Shown here: positions 8,541 to 63,617 of the stretch, piece by piece
How the letters are laid out: every line of letters starts with the position of its first letter
How positions within the stretch are numbered: the stretch's first letter is position 1
IMG/VR virus record: IMGVR_UViG_3300048928_000047
Strand: one strand, 5' to 3'
Origin: a virus
DNA length: 64,000 nt
The notes under the pieces: generated by a model
Told to the model about the DNA's origin: nothing
Databases searched by the model: none
The model's input: only the letters and a program-made list of their open reading frames with translations
Program-made: the position numbers and the translations under genes

Positions 8541-11030
8541 ATGATTCTAACAAGACCTAATAGCGCTATTGCTGATATGGTCGAAGCTACCTACAGAAAG
8601 CGTAGAAGCTTTGTAGCTGGCTTTACATTAACAAATGCAAGAGAAGTATTACTGTACGATACAGACGGTAACTACTATCAATGGAAGGGTGCTTTACCTA
8701 AGATCGTTCCAGCAAACTCTACCCCTGGTTCAACAGGTGGCATCGGTGTTAACACTTGGGTTAACGTTGGTAAAGCTGATGATATCGCTATTATCAATGC
8801 TAAGTTTACAACTATTCAACAAGAGATCGACGACCTCACTACACAAATTCCAGAAGCAGGTAAATCTGCATACGATATTGCGGTAGACAACGGCTTCGTC
8901 GGTACTGAACAAGAATGGCTTGACTCCCTGAAAGGAGAGACAGGTAGCGGTCTTGTAATCAAAGGTAGCTTTGGTTCTGTATCTGACCTGCCTATGACAG
9001 GTAACAGTCCTGGTGATGCATATATTGTTCAAGAGCAAATGTGGGTATGGGATAGTATCCAATGGTCGCCTGTTGGTCAAGTGGGACCGGAAGGTAAATC
9101 TGCGTATCAAAGTTGGTTAGACGTTGGTAACACAGGTACAGAGCTTGACTTCGTTCAATCCATTAAGGGTGATAAAGGTGATCCAGGTCCACAAGGACAG
9201 AAAGGTGATCCTGGTGTAAACGCTAACGGATTTGATTATCAGGGCGCTATCTCTGATCCTGGATTATTACCACTACCATCTCCAGCCAACGTGTCTCAGG
9301 CATGGAGCTATGGAACCTACCTCTACGTGTCTAACGGTACTGAGTGGGTTAACATGGGTGCTATTGTCGGTCCGAAAGGTGACAAGGGCGATAAAGGGGA
9401 TAAAGGTAACGCTGGTACAAATGGGGCAGATGGTAAAGATGGTGACTCAGCTTACCAAATCTGGATTAATGCTGGTAACTTTGGTTCAGAAGCCGATTTC
9501 ATTGCATCACTGAAAGGTGAGAAAGGAGATAAAGGCGACAAAGGTGATCAAGGTAATCAGGGTGTACAGGGTGTTCCTGGTATCCAAGGTGAAGGGCTTA
9601 ACATTGTAGGTGAAGTAGATAACGAAAGTCAACTACCTTCTACTGGTGTTGACTATGGTACAGCTTACTTAGTCGGTCCTGATAAATACATCTACATCTG
9701 GGTAGCAGTAGATCCTGGTGCCGGAACAGGGGAATGGCTAAATGCTGGTGTACTACAAGGTATCTCAATCACTGCGAAAGGTCAAGTACCATCTGCAAGT
9801 GATTTACCAGTTAAACCTCCATACGGTAGCGCATACAGCTTAGAAGACACTGGTAATCTGTACATCTATACGCTAAACTTCGACAAGAGCGAAGGTTGGG
9901 TGGATATGGGTGTTCTCCGTGGTATTGACGGAGAGAAAGGTGACAAAGGGGATACTGGTAACTCTATCCACGCGAAGGGTGAACTAAGTAACACTACCGA
10001 CTTACCTACCACTGGCAACATTCAAGGTGATATGTACTACATTCACCAGCGTTCATACATCTGGAGCGGTACAGCTTGGATTGACATGGGCGTGAACAGC
10101 GGTCCACAAGGTATACAGGGTGAGCAGGGTATTCAAGGGGAACAAGGTATTCAGGGTATTCCAGGTCCTATGGGACCAGGGGTTAAGATCCTTGGGGAAC
10201 TTGATTCAACCGCAGATCTTCCTGCTACTGGAACCATCGGTGAAGGTTATCTGATTGACGGAAACTTCTGGGTTTGGAACGTAGATAGCTCAGGAAATGG
10301 ATCATACCAGAACGCAGGTAATATCCAGGGACCAGCGGGACCGCAAGGTGCGCAGGGTGTGAAAGGTGATAAGGGTGATCAAGGTACACTGTGGATCGTA
10401 TTGCAGCGTAACCCTGGACCTGCTGACGGACGTGTAGGCGACTACTTCCTAAACTCCTTAACACTACAGTTCTTCCAGAAAACCAGCAGTCTTAACTGGG
10501 CTTCTATGGGCTACATGGGTGGTGGTAACGTATACGACGCACCAAGCGATGGCTCTATGTATGCTCGTAAGGACGGTGGTTGGACAGCGTTTACGATCCC
10601 TTCTCCAGGAATCTCAGACGCCCCTGCCGATGGGAAAGTTTATGCACGTAAAGATTCAGCTTGGGTAGAAACACTGGCGAAAGCCCCTACCACAGATGGC
10701 TATTACATGCAAAGTGGTGGTGTGTGGACTCGTTTGAATCGTTACGATTTAGCGGTATCTACTGCGACTGCTACACTTGACGCAAGTCAGGGACAAGTGT
10801 TTACTGTCTCTCTGGCATCAAGCAAAACCCTAACTATTACCAACCTACCTGCGGGTAGAGCGATGACCATTGTTGTTATCTTCACTGGTAATACGGGTTC
10901 AGTGTCATGGACTAACACAATCAACTGGACAGATGGAACGGCTCCAACGTACACAACTGGACGTTGTACAGTTAGTTTGCTATGGGACGGAACGAGCCTA
11001 CTTGGTTTCAAACCAGGTGGTTACGCTTAA
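8541..11030 (+). CDS. collagen-repeat tail fibre protein
   Basis: Several Gly-X-Y runs (e.g. GPKGDKGDKGDKGNAGTNGADGKDGD and GPQGIQGEQGIQGEQGIQGIPGPMGPG). Three copies of SAYxxWxxxGNxGxExDFxxSxKGxKGD. About six ~40-aa modules of the type G-x-(V/L)-xxx-DLP...W...G. Confidence 0.75.
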   Translation: MILTRPNSAIADMVEATYRKRRSFVAGFTLTNAREVLLYDTDGNYYQWKGALPKIVPANSTPGSTGGIGVNTWVNVGKADDIAIINAKFTTIQQEIDDLTTQIPEAGKSAYDIAVDNGFVGTEQEWLDSLKGETGSGLVIKGSFGSVSDLPMTGNSPGDAYIVQEQMWVWDSIQWSPVGQVGPEGKSAYQSWLDVGNTGTELDFVQSIKGDKGDPGPQGQKGDPGVNANGFDYQGAISDPGLLPLPSPANVSQAWSYGTYLYVSNGTEWVNMGAIVGPKGDKGDKGDKGNAGTNGADGKDGDSAYQIWINAGNFGSEADFIASLKGEKGDKGDKGDQGNQGVQGVPGIQGEGLNIVGEVDNESQLPSTGVDYGTAYLVGPDKYIYIWVAVDPGAGTGEWLNAGVLQGISITAKGQVPSASDLPVKPPYGSAYSLEDTGNLYIYTLNFDKSEGWVDMGVLRGIDGEKGDKGDTGNSIHAKGELSNTTDLPTTGNIQGDMYYIHQRSYIWSGTAWIDMGVNSGPQGIQGEQGIQGEQGIQGIPGPMGPGVKILGELDSTADLPATGTIGEGYLIDGNFWVWNVDSSGNGSYQNAGNIQGPAGPQGAQGVKGDKGDQGTLWIVLQRNPGPADGRVGDYFLNSLTLQFFQKTSSLNWASMGYMGGGNVYDAPSDGSMYARKDGGWTAFTIPSPGISDAPADGKVYARKDSAWVETLAKAPTTDGYYMQSGGVWTRLNRYDLAVSTATATLDASQGQVFTVSLASSKTLTITNLPAGRAMTIVVIFTGNTGSVSWTNTINWTDGTAPTYTTGRCTVSLLWDGTSLLGFKPGGYA

Positions 11031-54081: not shown

Positions 54082-54688
54082 TAATCTAATCGTGGTTGGT
54101 ATGCGGGACAAAGTACCAGAAGGGTTTAAGGTGGTCAACACTACCAGCCGTGATAAAGAAGGATACGGACAGCAGCTTAGCCCGTTCTACCTGCGTGATA
54201 TACCGATGTATGGTGGTATCGTAGCCAAGAATATGGAAAACGCCTGGCAATTTAGTAAGGTGTACGAAGAGCACGTAGATGAGAACGGTGATCCAACCGA
54301 GGCGTATTACGCATGGGCGCGAGCAGGTTGGGCTAACTGGAGAGCAGAACGCTACCCTATGGGTAAAGGCAGAAATCCTCTGTATAGTGTCTGGGATGGC
54401 AAGAAACTGGATTACATCACTGCCCGTCGAAACCTGTACTTCCCAATGTACGCTCGTGCAGTGGTGCAAACAGCTACATTCAAAGACCTATGGAAACGGG
54501 TTAATGATGGTGAGAAGATTGCACTGTTAGACTTTGACGGTTATCACTACCAGGAGTTAGGTATGGATTATTACGATGTAATTCATGCTGAGGATAAGAA
54601 GTGTGGTCACGGGTTTGTCATCTACGGATTAATTCAAAGAGAACTAATTCTAAGTGGCGACCGACTTTTCCTGCCGATGTTAGGCTAA
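54071..54688 (+). CDS. NADAR (YbiA/DUF1768)-superfamily-like protein
   Basis: Start moved to MKFDNLIVVG (GGAGATAAGA SD). QLSPFYL...NMENAWQFSKVY parallels YbiA FSNF...SEHYFQAQKF. KKCGHGFVIYGLIQ parallels G.N.LG..LM. Similarity judged from memory only. Confidence 0.4.
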   Translation: MKFDNLIVVGMRDKVPEGFKVVNTTSRDKEGYGQQLSPFYLRDIPMYGGIVAKNMENAWQFSKVYEEHVDENGDPTEAYYAWARAGWANWRAERYPMGKGRNPLYSVWDGKKLDYITARRNLYFPMYARAVVQTATFKDLWKRVNDGEKIALLDFDGYHYQELGMDYYDVIHAEDKKCGHGFVIYGLIQRELILSGDRLFLPMLG

Positions 54689-54915: not shown

Positions 54916-55125
54916 CTCCCAAATTATTTAAAACTTTTCTCCAAGTTTCTGGATAAATATTGCAAACCAAAATTTAAAATTTCTCTGAATTATTTAAAAC
55001 TTTTCTGCATCTTATCACAGAAAAATCCAAAACCAAAATTTAAAATTTTCAAAAAATTCCCCAATTATTAAAAGTTTTTGAACTTTTCGATCTGCATTTT
55101 TCCAAAAGCAAAATTTAAAATTCTC
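54916..55125. repeat. three tandem 66-75-bp AT-rich repeats
   Basis: Motif AATTATTTAAAACTTTTCT at 54922 and 54988, with a variant at 55063. Motif CCAAAATTTAAAATTT at 54967, 55033 and 55108. Spacings are 66 and 75 bp. No ORF. Confidence 0.75.
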
Positions 55126-55140
55126 AAAAATTTGCGGGAT

Positions 55141-55240
55141 GAGCATGATAAGCATTCTCATTTGCAATTGATAATCATTCTCGTTTAAAAAGTTGAATGA
55201 GAATCATTCTCATGTACAGATCGGAATGAGACTCATTCGC
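55141..55240. promoter_or_regulatory. array of four Fur-box-like palindromes
   Basis: 19-mers at 55141, 55164, 55193 and 55222 (GAGCATGATAAGCATTCTC, GCAATTGATAATCATTCTC, TTGAATGAGAATCATTCTC, CGGAATGAGACTCATTCGC). They match GATAATGATAATCATTATC at 15, 15, 14 and 12 of 19 positions (hand count). Spacing 23, 29 and 29 bp. Confidence 0.45.
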
Positions 55241-55468
55241 ATTTGTGATTTGTGGAATGACGGGCAGGTCCGGTGATTGTCTCGCCAGCCCCGTTCCCCT
55301 GTCCATGTATACATAATAACACAACCAAATCACGACGCAAGCACTTTATTCAATCTTTACAAAACTTTTTTGAGACGAGCTACCGGCGATCCACCTTCCA
55401 ACCAGTGCCCTGGTATGTTAGCCCCGCCTTTTCGCCGTGGGGTGGCGTGTCCTCTTCTTTATGTGATG

Positions 55469-55498
55469 AGTATAGCCCGACTTGCGCCAGGCTGTCAA
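55469..55498 (-). promoter_or_regulatory. leftward early-type promoter with no obvious ORF downstream
   Basis: Minus strand: TTGACA (55498-55493), 18-nt spacer, TATACT (55474-55469). Then CATCACATAAAG, the initial sequence shared with the rightward promoters at 58362, 62523 and 63080. Confidence 0.5.
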
Positions 55499-55500
55499 CA

Positions 55501-55770
55501 CTATTCTTTATCTTTTTGTGCGTCCAAGACACCACGCCAGAAAGATATCCGATCAGGTCGATAAGAGCATGACCGATAGGCAGCGCCGCAAATATCCACC
55601 ACGGCAAGCCGTAGCGCCTTTACGCCGTGATCGTAGGCTATCCGATTAGATACAGGGGAAGAATGAAGGTTTAACACTTCCAGGACGGTTAGCCCCGTTT
55701 CGCTTGCTACCTGGTGAACGGTTCCACCTTGCCAGCCTAAAACCTGCATCAATCTTTCTGTATTGGTCAT
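55501..55770 (-). CDS. small early protein (GWQGGTVHQV motif)
   Basis: GAGGAT SD. Own promoter and leader hairpin (55788-55841). The C-terminal third overlaps an alternative frame (55380-55607) that encodes a TM helix, so the true 3' end is uncertain. Confidence 0.5.
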   Translation of the reverse strand: MTNTERLMQVLGWQGGTVHQVASETGLTVLEVLNLHSSPVSNRIAYDHGVKALRLAVVDICGAAYRSCSYRPDRISFWRGVLDAQKDKE

Positions 55771-55787: not shown

Positions 55788-55841
55788 GCCTCCACCGTGG
55801 CGGCTTGATAACTACTATATACTAATGAAGGGAAAACGCAA
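55788..55841 (-). promoter_or_regulatory. leftward early promoter plus leader hairpin
   Basis: Minus strand: TTGCGT (55841-55836), 16-nt spacer, TATAGT (55819-55814). Then ATCAAG plus GC hairpin GCCGCCA-CGG-TGGAGGC (55804-55788). Confidence 0.5.
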
Positions 55842-56080
55842 GAAAAAATTTTCGTGATTTAGGCTCCCAGGTGATCGAAAAATTTTGCTCGCAAGTTTCA
55901 GGATCTCGATTTTTTCAGCTAACGAGTTTTACCAGGTCGAAAAATTTTTGTAACGAGTTTTACGTAAGAGGAAAATTTCCGAAACGAGATCCACCTAATC
56001 GAAAAAATTTTGTGGGAACTCCCAGGTGAAAAAATTTTTTATTTTTCAATCACCAGGGAAATATATATAAAAAATTTTAT
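55840..56080. repeat. array of about 8 phased A(n)T(n) tracts / ~31-bp iterons
   Basis: A5-6T4-6 tracts centred near 55848, 55882, 55912 (inverted), 55945, 55975, 56007, 56035 and 56074. Flanking words recur: CCCAGGTG, CAGGTCG, AACGAG. The array ends 10 nt before the -35 at 56090. Confidence 0.7.
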
Positions 56081-56089
56081 GAGTGGTAG

Positions 56090-56118
56090 TTGACAGCATA
56101 GTGGCGGCGATCTAATAT
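56090..56118 (+). promoter_or_regulatory. first rightward early promoter
   Basis: TTGACA 56090-56095, 17-nt spacer, TAATAT 56113-56118. Confidence 0.65.
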
Positions 56119-60130: not shown

Positions 60131-60505
60131 ATGAAATCAGCAGAAAAAATCAAGTCTTACATCCTGGCAGCAATTGAGTTTTACGATCATAAAGAAGACT
60201 TAATCACCAGCGAAGAGGATAAGATCCGCGAACTAATGCGCCGCTTTAATGCTGAATACTGGTACTATGAAAACCAAGTATACTATAAAGGCAACATGCT
60301 CAAAGCGATGGCCTCATGGTTGCAGGGTTTACCGTCCGACATTAATCACGCCTATTATTACAATGAGATTGATTCTCTTTTGATTGAGTGGGGTTATCTC
60401 AAGCCTACCAGCCGCGAGGCAACGATTGACCGCGAGCGGGATAATTACTGGCTTTACCTGGCGGGATCACTGATCGCGGTTGCAAAGTCTCACAACGTAG
60501 CGTAA
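60131..60505 (+). CDS. early protein
   Basis: 124-aa ORF after hairpin copy 5. Confidence 0.6.
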   Translation: MKSAEKIKSYILAAIEFYDHKEDLITSEEDKIRELMRRFNAEYWYYENQVYYKGNMLKAMASWLQGLPSDINHAYYYNEIDSLLIEWGYLKPTSREATIDRERDNYWLYLAGSLIAVAKSHNVA

Positions 60506-60519
60506 GCTAACACAACAAC

Positions 60520-60537
60520 GGCGGGAACTTCTCCCGC
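60520..60537 (+). promoter_or_regulatory. intercistronic hairpin, variant of the leader element
   Basis: GGCGGGA-ACTTC-TCCCGC. Same GCGGGA/TCCCGC stem but no promoter upstream. Lies between 60131-60505 and the 45-aa ORF. Confidence 0.5.
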
Positions 60538-60567
60538 TAACATTGAAACTAAAACGAGGGTTTAAAA

Positions 60568-60705
60568 ATGAATGGTTCCAACAACGTAGAAAAAATGGGT
60601 AACGGTAAACCGCGCAAGGCATGGAACGAAGATACCAGCCGCAAAGGGGATAAGCGCAACAAAACGCGCCGCGACCGCACCGAGAAACGGGGCTGGATTG
60701 AGTGA
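60568..60705 (+). CDS. 45-aa very basic peptide (not in ORF track)
   Basis: MNGSNNVEKMGNGKPRKAWNEDTSRKGDKRNKTRRDRTEKRGWIE. GAGGG SD. Followed by a terminator. Confidence 0.45.
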   Translation: MNGSNNVEKMGNGKPRKAWNEDTSRKGDKRNKTRRDRTEKRGWIE

Positions 60706-60710
60706 TAAGA

Positions 60711-60736
60711 GAAGGGGCGCACAATAGCGCCTCTTT
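60711..60736 (+). terminator. terminator-like hairpin (GGCGC-ACAATA-GCGCC core)
   Basis: Core 5-bp GC stem extendable with A-T and G-U pairs, followed by TTTCGCTTTC. Confidence 0.5.
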
Positions 60737-60770
60737 CGCTTTCTAACGTGTTTTAACCGGAGGTTATCCA

Positions 60771-60956
60771 ATGACATTGGAACAAATAGAAAAGGCCATA
60801 GAACAGCGCGGAGGGCGCTTAAAAGCGCGTTATCGTGATCAATGGGGCTTTATGGTTAATGGTGTGATCCTGGGGATTGATAACGGTGAGATTTTGATTG
60901 ACAATCTGAAAAATCGTGTTAAGCCTGATCAGGTAGTGGCTATCAATCATATTTAA
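60771..60956 (+). CDS. early small protein
   Basis: 61 aa. GGAGG SD. Confidence 0.55.
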   Translation: MTLEQIEKAIEQRGGRLKARYRDQWGFMVNGVILGIDNGEILIDNLKNRVKPDQVVAINHI

Positions 60957-60973
60957 TTGATAGGAAATAACTA

Positions 60974-61025
60974 TTAGACATTGCGCCCAGGTTGGCGCAT
61001 AGTGATCACATGAGGCGATAACCGC
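60974..61025 (+). promoter_or_regulatory. early promoter (weak -35, GC palindrome in spacer) plus short leader hairpin
   Basis: TTAGAC 60974-60979, 18-nt spacer, CATAGT 60998-61003. Spacer palindrome TGCGCC...GGCGCA. Leader GATCACATGAGG plus GGCG-ATAAC-CGCC. Confidence 0.45.
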
Positions 61026-61039
61026 CGGAGGAGGGATAA

Positions 61040-61426
61040 ATGAAAAAGATTATCATCGCCGCTATCCTGGCGGCAGTAAGCCTAAATGCAACAGCAGCAG
61101 ACACCGAGATCGACGCAATGAGCGCAAGCCGTGATCTCAGAGCCAGCATTGAAAAGATGCTGATAGTTTCGGGCGACACTAACGCAACGTTACGATCTTA
61201 CAACCTATCTAAAACTTTTGAGAATGCATTAAATTCTCAAATGATACCCGTTCTCAATAATAATCCTGATGCATCATGCGAGCTTATAGCGGCGCGGGTG
61301 GCACAGAATGCGCGGGGCAATTATGCGCCTTATCAGGTTAATCCCCTGATGACAAGAGCGATTGAAGATATGATCGGCAAAATGACCGTTTACACGATGG
61401 CGCAATGTTACTATTTAAAGAGTTGA
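61040..61426 (+). CDS. early secreted (periplasmic) protein
   Basis: Signal peptide MKKIIIAAILAAVSLNATAA. GGAGGAGGG SD. The TGA stop lies inside the next TTGACA box. Confidence 0.6.
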   Translation: MKKIIIAAILAAVSLNATAADTEIDAMSASRDLRASIEKMLIVSGDTNATLRSYNLSKTFENALNSQMIPVLNNNPDASCELIAARVAQNARGNYAPYQVNPLMTRAIEDMIGKMTVYTMAQCYYLKS

Positions 61427-61451
61427 CAAGCGAGCGGATCACGGTTAAGCT
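61423..61451 (+). promoter_or_regulatory. early promoter
   Basis: TTGACA 61423-61428, 17-nt spacer, TAAGCT 61446-61451. Confidence 0.5.
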
Positions 61452-61479
61452 GTAATGACAGTAACAGCAGGGGCAGAAA

Positions 61480-61770
61480 ATGGAACAGGCAAAATCTTTA
61501 TTGATGTTTAGCGGTGTAAGCAGTGATGCGGTGACGGTTGAGAGACACCAGGACGGCGACACGCTGATCGCAATGTTACGCGATGGTAACAACGGAGCGC
61601 TTTTGATCCTCAGTCTGAAAGAAGTGAGGAAAGGTTATTATTCGTTAGCTTATCATTTGATAACTAATGATAATGAAACAAGCCAGGATTTTTCCTTGCC
61701 TTTTCCGGCAAATTGTGCGCCGTCTTTCGTGGCTGCAATTATCAATGATGTTTTCCAGGTGGTGGCATGA
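61480..61770 (+). CDS. early protein
   Basis: 96-aa ORF. Confidence 0.55.
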   Translation: MEQAKSLLMFSGVSSDAVTVERHQDGDTLIAMLRDGNNGALLILSLKEVRKGYYSLAYHLITNDNETSQDFSLPFPANCAPSFVAAIINDVFQVVA

Positions 61771-61853
61771 TGGAACGTGACACTAAAATAAAACTTGCTT
61801 TCGCCGCCGTTTTATGGATAATGGTTTTTGCGGTGGTTATCATGAGAGGGTAA
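61767..61853 (+). CDS. 28-aa single-TM peptide (not in ORF track)
   Basis: MMERDTKIKLAFAAVLWIMVFAVVIMRG. ATGA overlap with the upstream stop. Confidence 0.35.
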   Translation: MMERDTKIKLAFAAVLWIMVFAVVIMRG

Positions 61854-61857
61854 ACCA

Positions 61858-61977
61858 ATGAAACGTTATCAAGTGGAATACAGCACAGTAAACCCTGCCT
61901 ATGAGGAAGGGGCGAAAATGTGCAAAATTGCATCTTACTTTTTAGCGCTCATTGTATTATTTTCTTTACTATCCTGA
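61858..61977 (+). CDS. 39-aa peptide with C-terminal TM segment (not in ORF track)
   Basis: MKRYQVEYSTVNPAYEEGAKMCKIASYFLALIVLFSLLS. Starts 4 nt after the previous stop. Confidence 0.3.
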   Translation: MKRYQVEYSTVNPAYEEGAKMCKIASYFLALIVLFSLLS

Positions 61978-62005
61978 AACATCGTTTAAACCTGGAGATC
62001 AGAAA

Positions 62006-62239
62006 ATGGCTAACGTGTCAATCAAAAAAGCAGCACTTGACTATGCGACCGTAAGACAACAGCGCCACGCTATCGACACCGCACAGCGTTTACTAAATGA
62101 GATTGCTTCTCAATTAGGTACAGCACAAATTCCAGCCAATGATCACCTGATGGCGATCCGTAATTTGATAGATGAGAAAGATTCTCAATTGTTCGACAAA
62201 GAGCAAGATTTATACTATATCGTTTCACGCCTGGATTGA
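62006..62239 (+). CDS. early small coiled-coil protein
   Basis: Start moved to MANVSIKKAAL (GGAGATCAGAAA SD). Confidence 0.5.
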   Translation: MANVSIKKAALDYATVRQQRHAIDTAQRLLNEIASQLGTAQIPANDHLMAIRNLIDEKDSQLFDKEQDLYYIVSRLD

Positions 62240-62247
62240 TTCACAAA

Positions 62248-62285
62248 GGCGGGAGCTTGTCAAGGGTTCCCGCAACTATTTTTCA
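62248..62285 (+). terminator. terminator that reuses the leader-hairpin stem
   Basis: GGCGGGA-(13-nt loop with inner CTT/AAG stem)-TTCCCGC, followed by AACTATTTTTCATTTTT. Confidence 0.6.
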
Positions 62286-62522
62286 TTTTTGCGTTATGCA
62301 AAAAAGTGAATTTAAGGCGATCAGGGAGAGAATGATCAAAGGTACGGGAAACGGTTAGCGCCCCGTGTAGGGCGTTTTAGAGCGTTTTACGGGGTATTGA
62401 CTTTTTCCGAAACGCTCAAAGCGTCTTAAATTTAGTTTCACCGTGTGATTATGTGCATACGAGTGCATTTCTATGCAATAAAGTGAATATTGTAAAGATG
62501 ATGAATATTGCATTCATCGCTA

Positions 62523-62550
62523 TTGACTACCGCGCCCGATCTGCTATGAT
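62523..62550 (+). promoter_or_regulatory. early promoter
   Basis: TTGACT 62523-62528, 16-nt spacer, TATGAT 62545-62550. Leader TTATCACATAGGGCGGGGC. An inverted repeat GATGAAT-(5)-ATTCATC lies just upstream (62497-62515). Confidence 0.6.
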
Positions 62551-62605
62551 TTATCACATAGGGCGGGGCAATAACGCAACGCCAGAAAATCCGAAGGATT
62601 GCATC

Positions 62606-63070
62606 ATGAATAAATTTTGCGTAGGTCAAAAGGTTATCGGTTTAAACGAGCGTAAGATCCACGTTGTAACCGCCTTACGTGGCGAGGGCGTGATCGTCCT
62701 GGATGGCAAAATTGAGGACGTGGAAAGCGCCTATCAGATCGAACCTGAATTTATGGATAAGACCAACTATTTTTATCATCATTCAAAATTTGCCGAAGCT
62801 ATCGAAATGATGAATGATGGCTTTTATGCCTACCGTGGATCAGTAGAGGAATATGCGTACCTGAAAAGTTTAGTAACAACAGAACATCCGAGCGCTTTTA
62901 TGTTAAGTGCGCTTTCTATGTGCCAGGGGCTGATTGACACCGCCGCCGCTAAAATTGAGCGCGGGTTAGCGGTAAAGCGTACCGCCGAGCACAATTTAGC
63001 GCAATGGGATCGGTTGACGCTTGATCATCACTTCCCATTCCTTAACCCTGAAAATCTGACAGACTACTAA
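62606..63070 (+). CDS. early protein
   Basis: Start moved to MNKFCVGQK, downstream of the 62523 promoter. The longer ORF would span the promoter. Confidence 0.55.
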   Translation: MNKFCVGQKVIGLNERKIHVVTALRGEGVIVLDGKIEDVESAYQIEPEFMDKTNYFYHHSKFAEAIEMMNDGFYAYRGSVEEYAYLKSLVTTEHPSAFMLSALSMCQGLIDTAAAKIERGLAVKRTAEHNLAQWDRLTLDHHFPFLNPENLTDY

Positions 63071-63079
63071 ATATAATAG

Positions 63080-63141
63080 TTGACGCGCCCAAGGAAAGGG
63101 CGCATAATTCATCACATAGGACGGCGGGAATGGTTCCCGCC
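63080..63141 (+). promoter_or_regulatory. early promoter (GC palindrome in spacer) plus leader hairpin (copy 6, perfect 8-bp stem)
   Basis: TTGACG 63080-63085, 17-nt spacer, CATAAT 63103-63108. Spacer palindrome GCGCCC...GGGCGC. Leader CATCACATAGG plus GGCGGGAA-TGG-TTCCCGCC at 63123-63141. Confidence 0.7.
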
Positions 63142-63159
63142 TTAATGAGAGAGATTATC

Positions 63160-63384
63160 ATGTTTAACTTAGACCAACTGGCAGCAGCGATTGAGAAAGC
63201 AGGTGATGCGAAATATGGCGTTAAAGATCACTATTTCATCGGTCAATATCCTGATGGCACTTATTACGGTGTGTTGTCTAACAAGGTGAAAAGCCGCAGC
63301 AGCGCCGCGCAGATGAGAACGCCGGAATGGTTCGAAAGTAAAGGAATTAAAGCGATCAAAGTGATGAAACGAGGCCACAAATGA
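63160..63384 (+). CDS. early small protein
   Basis: Start moved to MFNLDQLAAAIEK, after hairpin copy 6. Confidence 0.55.
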   Translation: MFNLDQLAAAIEKAGDAKYGVKDHYFIGQYPDGTYYGVLSNKVKSRSSAAQMRTPEWFESKGIKAIKVMKRGHK

Positions 63385-63617
63385 AAACGAAAAGCATTCT
63401 CATTAAGAAAAAATTCCCTGATCGTATGTGGGAGATCAGCGAAGTGATCCACGCTGGAACGGCGGAGGAATACAAGCGCCTGATCGGATATATCCGCGAA
63501 ACAAAAAGCGGTTTTATCTGGACTCATTCAGGCTTGAACCGTGAGAGCGCCAGCTATCACCCAACAAAGGCGCAAGCCTTGCGCGGTTTAAAGCTGGTAC
63601 ACCAGCAACAAAAATAA
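63381..63617 (+). CDS. early basic protein
   Basis: 78 aa. ATGA overlap with the upstream gene. Confidence 0.55.
   Translation: MKTKSILIKKKFPDRMWEISEVIHAGTAEEYKRLIGYIRETKSGFIWTHSGLNRESASYHPTKAQALRGLKLVHQQQK

Follow-up and report, generated by a model that had tools for sequence, protein, structure and literature searches.

The 64,000-nucleotide stretch of viral DNA analysed here (the window; IMG/VR record IMGVR_UViG_3300048928_000047) contains a non-coding region in which four tandem palindromes resembling the operator boxes of the host iron sensor Fur lie between a set of AT-rich repeats on the left and two predicted leftward promoters, P1 and P2, on the right (Table 1). The four 19-mers described in the earlier note start at positions 55141, 55164, 55193 and 55222, with a spacing of 23, 29 and 29 bp, and match the consensus GATAATGATAATCATTATC at 15, 15, 14 and 12 of 19 positions, all of which proved exact on recount. 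The only 15-of-19 matches to this consensus in the window are the two in the array. The region is better described by four 17-bp dyads spanning 55145–55242, with the consensus ATGA[G/T]AAT-N-ATT[C/A]TCAT, in which the dyad centre lies 3 bp to the right of the centre of the classical 19-mer (at its position 13) and hence in the 7-1-7 register. The 7-1-7 motif TGATAAT-N-ATTATCA is that of the single-dimer model of Chen et al. (PMC2189734). Box 3 is palindromic, as had been noted, but rather than being near-perfect it is a perfect 8-1-8 palindrome. When up to three mismatches are allowed, the palindrome yields 15 strand-matches in the window, compared with 0.29 expected from shuffled sequences. 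The 7-1-7 dyad symmetry, which is also evident in the symmetric logo of the phage family, fits binding by a dimer, and we infer that each palindrome would constitute a single-dimer 7-1-7 operator site for host Fur.

Table 1. Features of the region surrounding the four boxes, in window coordinates
Feature	Position	Strand	Description
Three AT-rich 61-nt repeats	54922..55123	.	Start-to-start distances 66 and 75 nt; each ends AAAATTTAAAATT
Box 1, ATGATAAGCATTCTCAT	55145..55161	.	Fur-type 7-1-7 dyad; 17.1 bits
Box 2, TTGATAATCATTCTCGT	55168..55184	.	22.0 bits, top site of the window
Box 3, ATGAGAATCATTCTCAT	55197..55213	.	0 mismatches; 18.2 bits
Box 4 (proximal box), ATGAGACTCATTCGCAT	55226..55242	.	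17.5 bits
Leader, P2 start to box 4	55243..55312	-	Invariant blocks GGTG.TTGTCTCGC and CCCGT in the alignment
GGAATGA	55254..55260	.	12 nt right of box 4; GAAT invariant in 10 aligned phages; possible remnant half-site, as read from the alignment
P2, sigma-70 promoter (predicted)	55313..55340	-	TTGCGT-16-TATTAT, TG at 55321..55320; start ~55306
P1-P2 interval	55341..55462	-	Transcribed (predicted), highly conserved; long invariant runs in two subfamilies; predicted RNA fold
P1, sigma-70 promoter (predicted)	55469..55498	-	TTGACA-18-TATACT, 11 of 12 positions; start ~55462
89-amino-acid ORF	55501..55770	-	Immediately upstream of P1; phrog_33408, phrog_19316 (families of unknown function)
Early promoter	56090..56118	+	TTGACA-17-TAATAT, strong; starts a block of small early ORFs running to the window end

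ORF, open reading frame.

Scoring against footprinted E. coli Fur regions

The boxes were scored with a symmetric matrix of 19 columns that was derived from, and rests on, 12 DNase-footprinted Fur regions of E. coli K-12, the coordinates of which are those of Table 3 in PMC2189734. The regions were taken from NC_000913.3, with the coordinate shift corrected and a recognisable box confirmed in each, and the consensus of the resulting matrix is AATGATAATCATTATCATT. In a leave-one-out scheme the 12 genuine E. coli regions score between 8.7 and 23.9 bits, and the phage boxes, at 17.1–22.0 bits, lie inside this range. TGAGAAT-type half-sites, as found in the phage, are also present in the best-scoring sites of the footprinted regions of fecI and fepB. 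Within the 1.48-kb non-coding region, four sites reach at least 17 bits, where 0.016 would be expected (500 shuffles). The comparison of a Fur matrix with the background of the window, which the earlier note had called for, returns six such sites for the whole window as opposed to a mean of 0.105 in 200 dinucleotide shuffles. The description of the palindromes as Fur-box-like thus stands, with scores in the footprinted range, an array that is conserved in two subfamilies and a 19-mer containing the palindrome of box 3 that recurs in identical form beside bacterial iron-uptake genes. Sequence analysis alone could hardly make a stronger case that the boxes are operator sequences of the Fur type.

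Overlapping sites shifted by 6 bp are weak in the array, with 9.1 bits at 55147 and 14.1 bits at 55170, and stronger shifted pairs are observed in phage T5 and in the terminal-repeat boxes of relatives. Six further matrix hits of 13–18.5 bits are concentrated within 3 kb at 60363–63403 (at 61048, 63395, 61249, 60371, 62105 and 62180). All of these are located within early ORFs, several of them on start codons (61040 MKKIII and 63381 MKTKSILI). We did not count them as parts of the element, since they may be codon-driven and hits in coding sequence are rare in a complete relative.

Conservation of the array among relatives

The 1.5-kb region around the array matches ~100 phage records, the nearest of which are the Klebsiella phages KP13-26 and phi1_175008 with 78–80% identity, followed by phi92, muut, alia and phAPEC8-type phages (Stephanstirmvirinae) and then by PVP-SE1-type phages (Vequintavirinae). 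These relatives are large virulent myoviruses with genomes of ~145–150 kb. Boxes are present in this non-coding region in every relative examined, across both subfamilies and in phages of E. coli, Klebsiella, Salmonella, Cronobacter and Serratia, with between one and five boxes per locus: one in PVP-SE1-type phages, two or three in several environmental relatives, three or four in the Klebsiella relatives and five in phi92, alia and KKP_3264. In nearly all relatives that retain the conserved block, even where the locus has only one box, the proximal box is positioned at -176 to -190 from a conserved anchor; the exceptions are two divergent environmental loci (L016 and L023), where the proximal box is found elsewhere. 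The spacings of 29 bp and 23 bp recur among the relatives, the 23-bp spacing between box 1 and box 2 being shared with phi92, muut and phi1_175008, and the spacers themselves have diverged beyond alignability. Two PVP-SE1-like environmental loci, L010 (+9.2 to +10.4 kb from the anchor) and L021 (+9.2 to +10.0 kb), contain additional, mostly intergenic Fur-type boxes of up to 23.9 bits. These extra boxes, ~9–10 kb to the right of the locus, are probably situated in the terminal region of the respective phage.

The logo of 68 boxes from the family, which are phylogenetically non-independent, reads AATGA[G 65% / T 32%]AAT[C/G]ATT[C 65% / A 32%]TCATT. The two positions at ±4 vary independently within a box, with the combination at (-4, +4) being G/C in 26, T/C in 25, G/A in 12 and T/A in 2 boxes. 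This independent variation fits recognition of two half-sites by a protein and argues against a hairpin. Indeed, structural DNA or RNA hairpins, such as cruciforms or RNase sites, might be considered given the palindromic form of the boxes and their expected transcription from P1 and P2, but the arms display no co-variation and 37 of the 68 boxes are non-complementary at these positions (T/C or G/A). A chance cluster in AT-rich DNA is at odds with the four sites observed where 0.016 are expected, as well as with the conservation across subfamilies. We therefore regard both hairpins and chance as very improbable explanations of the array.

Occurrence of the palindrome in bacteria and other viruses

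The exact 19-mer AATGAGAATCATTCTCATT, which contains the palindrome of box 3 in full, is present in more than 120 bacterial genomes from many phyla, where ~4 occurrences would be expected by an estimate for random sequence; box 3 with its own flanks (AATGAGAATCATTCTCATG) differs from it by one flank base. Among the matches listed, the bacterial sites are mostly intergenic, with an ORF start 10–100 nt away. Pfam annotation covered 49 ORFs flanking the 19-mer and assigned them to the TonB-dependent receptor Plug (9), FeoB_N (4), ZnuA-type (3), Peripla_BP_2 (3) and Fe3+-type solute-binding (3) families, with one case each of FTR1, Iron_transport and ABC_tran (an ABC ATPase), such that at least 24 of the 49 are TonB receptors, FeoB, metal-binding proteins or FTR1. 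Judged by these neighbours, the G variant of the palindrome is an operator of metal uptake in bacteria. No Enterobacterales are found among the matches listed, and for the host group the evidence for an operator therefore comes from the E. coli footprints.

A scan of IMG/VR for two boxes within 6–30 bp of each other retrieved more than 120 viral contigs from many environments. Many of these arrays comprise several to ~20 matrix hits of at least 14 bits, with 6-bp-shifted overlaps counted separately. The viral arrays are located in non-coding DNA and, unlike the bacterial sites, usually have no ORF start within 400 bp; the ORFs that do flank them are phage genes, including those for the large and small terminase, ParB-like proteins, tail fibre and integrase, with no iron gene among them. 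The arrays often lie near terminase genes or contig ends. In the T5-like contigs among the matches, the array adjoins DnaA boxes.

In T5 itself (AY587007), copies 1–4 of the annotated direct repeat C together with the palindromes E–I at 9468–9637 correspond to the boxes described here. The T5 boxes score 20.9, 26.1, 19.8 and 21.3 bits and are accompanied by additional half-sites, with AATGAGAATCATTATCATT accounting for the value of 26.1 bits. They fall in Repeat Region 3, which is a candidate injection stop signal, and Davison places the shear point of first-step transfer at ~9618 and the nick (7.9%) at 9661–9668 (10.1101/866236). The T5 box array (9482–9627) thus coincides with the estimated shear point and adjoins the 7.9% nick. 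Fur is not mentioned in the T5 preprint (10.1101/866236), and the literature searched contained nothing relevant on Fur boxes in T5, in virulent phages or as decoys.

Position of the array relative to the genome end

The complete genome of the relative alia (148,442 bp) contains 13 sites of at least 15 bits, of which 10 are outside ORFs of at least 90 amino acids, and nine of these 10 non-coding sites form two clusters, one at 80208–80301 (five boxes), which is the homologue of the locus described here, and one at 91364–92563 (four boxes). Phage BME3 has a direct terminal repeat of 342 bp, as determined by PhageTerm (PMC12210895). This repeat carries two boxes and maps to ~92.3–92.7 kb of alia, which places the second alia cluster at the physical end of the genome. 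Similarly, the last 343 bp in the record of phi1_175008, the nearest relative, are identical to its first 343 bp and also contain boxes. Further boxes are observed ~1 kb inside the terminal repeats of relatives. The distance from the array to the genome end is 12.3 kb (8.3% of the genome) for alia/BME3 and 13.0 kb (8.7%) for phi1_175008, compared with 9.5–9.6 kb (7.8–7.9%) for T5. In the relatives, the DNA between array and end is occupied by small early ORFs that are transcribed toward the end, and P1 and P2 point in the opposite direction, into the rest of the genome. With the same termini as its relatives, the phage of the window would end at about 67.5–68.2 kb, beyond the window.

Promoters, leader and repeats around the boxes

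The neighbours reported for the boxes are real, with AT-rich repeats at 54922–55123 and a leftward promoter at 55498..55469, although the latter is not the single orphan promoter that it was thought to be, because a second one (P2) is present between it and the boxes. Both promoters are predictions based on consensus and comparative pattern; in the alignments their hexamers are conserved and their spacers variable. The equivalents of P1 are TTGACA-17-TATACT in phi92, TTGCAA-17-TATAGT in PVP-SE1 and TTGCAA-17-TATATT in the environmental relative L021, and those of P2 are TTGATC-16-TATTAT with TG in PVP-SE1 and TTGCAA-17-TATATT in L021. A third leftward promoter-like match (9–10 of 12 positions) is found just past the box in PVP-SE1 and L021. 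The boxes are located at +72 to +153 from the P2 start and +228 to +309 from the P1 start and overlap neither a strong promoter nor the -35 and -10 regions of P1 or P2; being downstream of both promoters, they are not classical promoter-overlapping operators. Intrinsic terminators were found neither between P1/P2 and the boxes nor past the boxes.

The block of ~230 nt to the right of the boxes (55243–55470) is the most conserved part of the intergenic region in both subfamilies. For the P1-P2 interval, RNAalifold predicts a fold of 16 pairs, comprising a hairpin CGCC/GGCG and a long helix GGCGG...UCGCC, with almost no broken pairs and with two co-varying pairs, one changing from A-U to G-C in 10 of 22 sequences and the other from C-G to G-C in 2 of 22. 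The indels in this interval are not multiples of three, which argues against coding, and no Rfam family matches it; a search of 54.5–56.3 kb on both strands with E up to 10 returned noise only. The interval may encode a phage non-coding RNA or leader that has yet to be described. The relatives share a nearly unvarying tandem heptamer, TCTTTAC-N4-TCTTTAC, directly upstream of the P2 -35 element, and this heptamer may be a site for another factor. In the copy of the window (55344–55360, plus strand) the first heptamer is degenerate (CTTTATT).

The tract to the left of the boxes is gene-less, with no minus-strand ORF of at least 60 amino acids, and P1 and P2 point into its 61-nt repeats, beyond which a convergent operon terminates, with its 3' end at 54688. 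On the opposite side, the small early ORFs, transcribed toward the genome end, extend from 56170 onward. Three tandem repeats of 31 nt (AACGAGTTTTACC.GGTCGAAAAATTTTTGT) at 55921–56013 and several AAAAATTTT motifs at 55840–56080 are observed just upstream of the early promoter. No tRNA gene was found in the window.

Candidate phage-encoded binders

E. coli Fur was compared by tblastn with 50,697 phage records, and no match was obtained in Stephanstirmvirinae or Vequintavirinae. Likewise, the pre-early proteins of T5, including A1 and A2, have no tblastn match in the window, and ~4 kb of the early block lie beyond it; homologues of the DNA-binding protein A2 are found in T5-like genomes only. 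Rightward of the boxes, none of the 19 early ORFs contains a Pfam domain that reaches the curated cut-off, and nearly all early ORFs are without functional assignment. The 89-amino-acid ORF upstream of P1 has 20 homologues; its N-terminus (MTNTE.LM..LGWQGGTVHQVA..TGLTV) is strongly conserved and its C-terminus variable, and the AlphaFold2 model of its product has a pLDDT (predicted local distance difference test) of 87. We set it aside as a binder, since it has no Pfam domain, no sequence match in the PDB, no Foldseek match in the PDB better than E = 2 and no homologue at the equivalent place in PVP-SE1, where a box is nonetheless present; the leftward ORF found there is 22% identical. By these searches, no phage-encoded binder can be nominated.

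Rather, unrelated phages that have hosts but not proteins in common contain the same palindrome, which points to a host factor. Nevertheless, a dimeric DNA-binding protein of the phage could have a specificity that coincides with, or copies, that of the Fur box. The systematic preference for G/C at ±4, which differs from the E. coli Fur consensus, would be consistent with such a protein, as would the conserved N-terminus of the 89-amino-acid ORF, which by eye appears helix-turn-helix-like, and the large share of early ORFs of unknown function. On the other hand, the palindrome recurs in T5-like phages, in more than 120 other viral contigs and beside bacterial iron-uptake genes, no candidate protein common to these phages was found, and the 89-amino-acid protein has neither a significant fold match nor a positional homologue in PVP-SE1. 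We thus consider it doubtful that the binder is encoded by the phage, and the suggestion in the earlier note that the boxes are operators for a phage repressor that merely resemble Fur boxes has become less likely, given the palindromes in T5-like phages and the lack of a shared candidate.

Possible function of the array

Host Fur is, from the sequence comparisons, probably the protein that binds the boxes. As to function, we tentatively favor, at slightly less than an even chance, a reading in which host Fur-Fe2+ would bind the array, act as a barrier or gate where the terminal early-gene block ends on its inner side, and be titrated as well. P1 and P2, which are of host type, would fire leftward, away from the terminus and into the gene-less AT-rich repeat tract, and Fur-Fe2+ dimers filling the array would establish a nucleoprotein barrier, such that inward transcription, and the steps that depend on it, would be gated by the iron and Fur state of the cell. 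Alternatively, the array could equally act locally as an iron-conditional fence that separates the AT-rich tract from the early promoters and control region. Replicated genomes, each with the array and the terminal-repeat boxes, would in addition titrate Fur, an effect that follows automatically if Fur binds and that may perhaps be selected in its own right. A local role is preferred over that of a pure sink on the basis of the fixed position of the proximal box with respect to P2, the recurrent phasing and the location at the edge of the terminal early block.

Several observations weigh against the gate. E. coli Fur operators usually consist of overlapping sites 3 or 6 bp apart that also overlap the promoter (PMC2189734), whereas the phage sites are discrete, 23–29 bp apart and downstream of the promoters, with promoter overlap at the boxes being limited to a weak match (9 of 12 positions; TTATCA-18-TATCAT) across boxes 1 and 2. 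The family prefers G at -4 and C at +4 (65%), where the footprinted E. coli sites have T and A (56%; G ~10%), and boxes with the full consensus T/A are rare (2 of 68); this preference could reflect either another binder or a selective pressure that is not directed at the tightest possible Fur binding. A T5-like contig has flanks similar to those found here, for example TTTAAAAAGnnGAATGA, suggesting that the motif is perhaps longer than a Fur site or that a module has moved horizontally. Lastly, the termini of this particular phage fall outside the window.

If the array had no local role, it could act solely as a sponge that soaks up Fur during genome replication, thereby de-repressing host iron uptake, RyhB and the manganese-dependent ribonucleotide reductase (nrdHIEF) to aid phage DNA synthesis. 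The principle of titration is established by the Fur titration assay (FURTA), and the variable number of boxes (one to five), the additional boxes at the terminal repeat and the ~9–11 strong sites in the whole genome of a relative would all fit with a sponge, as would the arrays of up to ~20 matrix hits of at least 14 bits in other viral contigs (shifted overlaps included), the lack of overlap with any strong promoter and the location of the viral arrays beside ordinary phage genes rather than iron genes. A pure sink, however, needs no positional conservation, and the distance between the proximal box and P2 is fixed in nearly all lineages with the conserved block, single-box ones included, and the 29-bp phasing recurs. 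Moreover, the single box per locus of PVP-SE1 would be a poor sink, and Fur is abundant, with several thousand molecules per cell, so that the capacity would be marginal before late replication. A sponge without any local role therefore seems unlikely to us. The array could also be the counterpart of the T5 injection stop, in which case a first-entering segment of ~8% would pause at the array, P1/P2 or early proteins would pull in the remainder, and Fur or the array would be part of pause and release. The coincidence of the T5 array with the shear point and its proximity to the nick argue for such a role, as does the location of the array 8.3–8.7% from the terminal repeat in the relatives, with small early ORFs in between that are transcribed endward as in T5. 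The tandem strong inward promoters without a downstream ORF are also in line with it and recall the transcription-driven entry of the T7 genome. Conversely, the locus has no DnaA boxes, no A1 or A2 homologues were found, and it is hard to see how a cytoplasmic protein could halt entry from DNA that is already inside the cell; the match in percentage may be a coincidence, and to our knowledge there is no report of two-step entry for these phages. We consider this possibility improbable, and similarly hold as a long shot the broader proposal that unrelated virulent phages (T5-like siphoviruses and phi92/rV5-like myoviruses) use Fur-operator arrays as a boundary element ~8% inward of the genome end, bordering the terminal gene block that is expressed first, where Fur would help to pause, gate or insulate stepwise entry and early transcription, with the stop signal of T5 being at least in part a Fur-box array.

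A replication origin activated by transcription is more improbable still. Transcripts from P1 and P2 would open or prime the AT-rich repeats, and the boxes would modulate firing; the arrangement, with tandem promoters ahead of AT-rich repeats, recalls the primary origin of T7 as well as oriF and oriG of T4. Yet GC skew shows no inflection at the locus, having its minimum near 50 kb where gene orientation switches, and neither a DnaA box (TTWTNCACA; none in 54.6–56.2 kb) nor an initiator gene nearby was found. In addition, the boxes of T5 are far from its mapped origins (10.1101/866236). The earlier idea that Fur might gate origin firing thus received no positive support from GC skew or the search for DnaA boxes. 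In the whole window, TTWTNCACA occurs twice, compared with ~8 expected from shuffles, which may reflect avoidance.

Comparison with known systems

The outcome or timing of infection may be coupled to the iron status of the host, replicating phage DNA may de-repress the host iron regulon, and a host protein may participate in the sixty-year-old puzzle of two-step DNA transfer in T5. Phages related to phi92, rV5 and PVP-SE1 are common candidates for therapy, and iron limitation is the normal condition for bacteria within a host.

The array resembles the Fur boxes of enterobacterial genes (fhuF, fepA-fes, entC, sodA, fecI and iucA) in its 7-1-7 dyad, (A)ATGA(T/G)AAT-N-ATT(A/C)TCAT(T), in scores that fall within the footprinted range and in the clustering of sites. 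It differs from them in that the phage boxes neither overlap a strong promoter nor adjoin an iron gene, being located in the non-coding control region of a virulent phage, and in that they are discrete (23–29 bp apart) rather than overlapped by 3 or 6 bp and prefer G/C at ±4. Fur is also an anti-silencer of H-NS at ftnA of E. coli, where, as here, Fur sites adjoin curved, AT-rich DNA and are remote from the core promoter; the present array is downstream of the promoters rather than upstream. Decoy arrays, as exploited in FURTA, share with the phage the principle that multiple high-affinity sites on a multicopy replicon would lower free Fur, although FURTA is a laboratory artefact of plasmid copy number, and a natural viral Fur sponge was not described in the literature searched.

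With Repeat Region 3 of T5, the locus shares the palindromes, a long non-coding repeat region and, judged by its relatives, a probable location at the inward boundary of an early segment that makes up the terminal ~8% of the genome. T5, in contrast, has paired DnaA boxes, a site-specific nick, nine DRD repeats and a terminal repeat of 10 kb, none of which is seen here; the terminal repeat in the relatives of this phage is only 342–343 bp, and no A1/A2 homologues were found. Temperate phages carry Fur boxes upstream of cargo genes, as for sitABCD on lambdoid phages and for stx1 (PMC6969025). These are likewise operators for host Fur on a phage genome, but they act at the promoters of iron-related cargo operons, whereas here there is no cargo gene and the infection is lytic. 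Fur boxes are textbook elements, familiar as operators at the promoters of iron genes in bacteria and of a small number of cargo genes in phages. The present case differs in having a conserved, position-fixed Fur-type array within the non-coding control region of a phage that is strictly lytic, with further boxes in the terminal repeat of relatives, in the injection-stop region of T5 and in more than 120 other viral contigs, which suggests that phages widely exploit the iron sensor of their hosts for something other than the regulation of iron genes.

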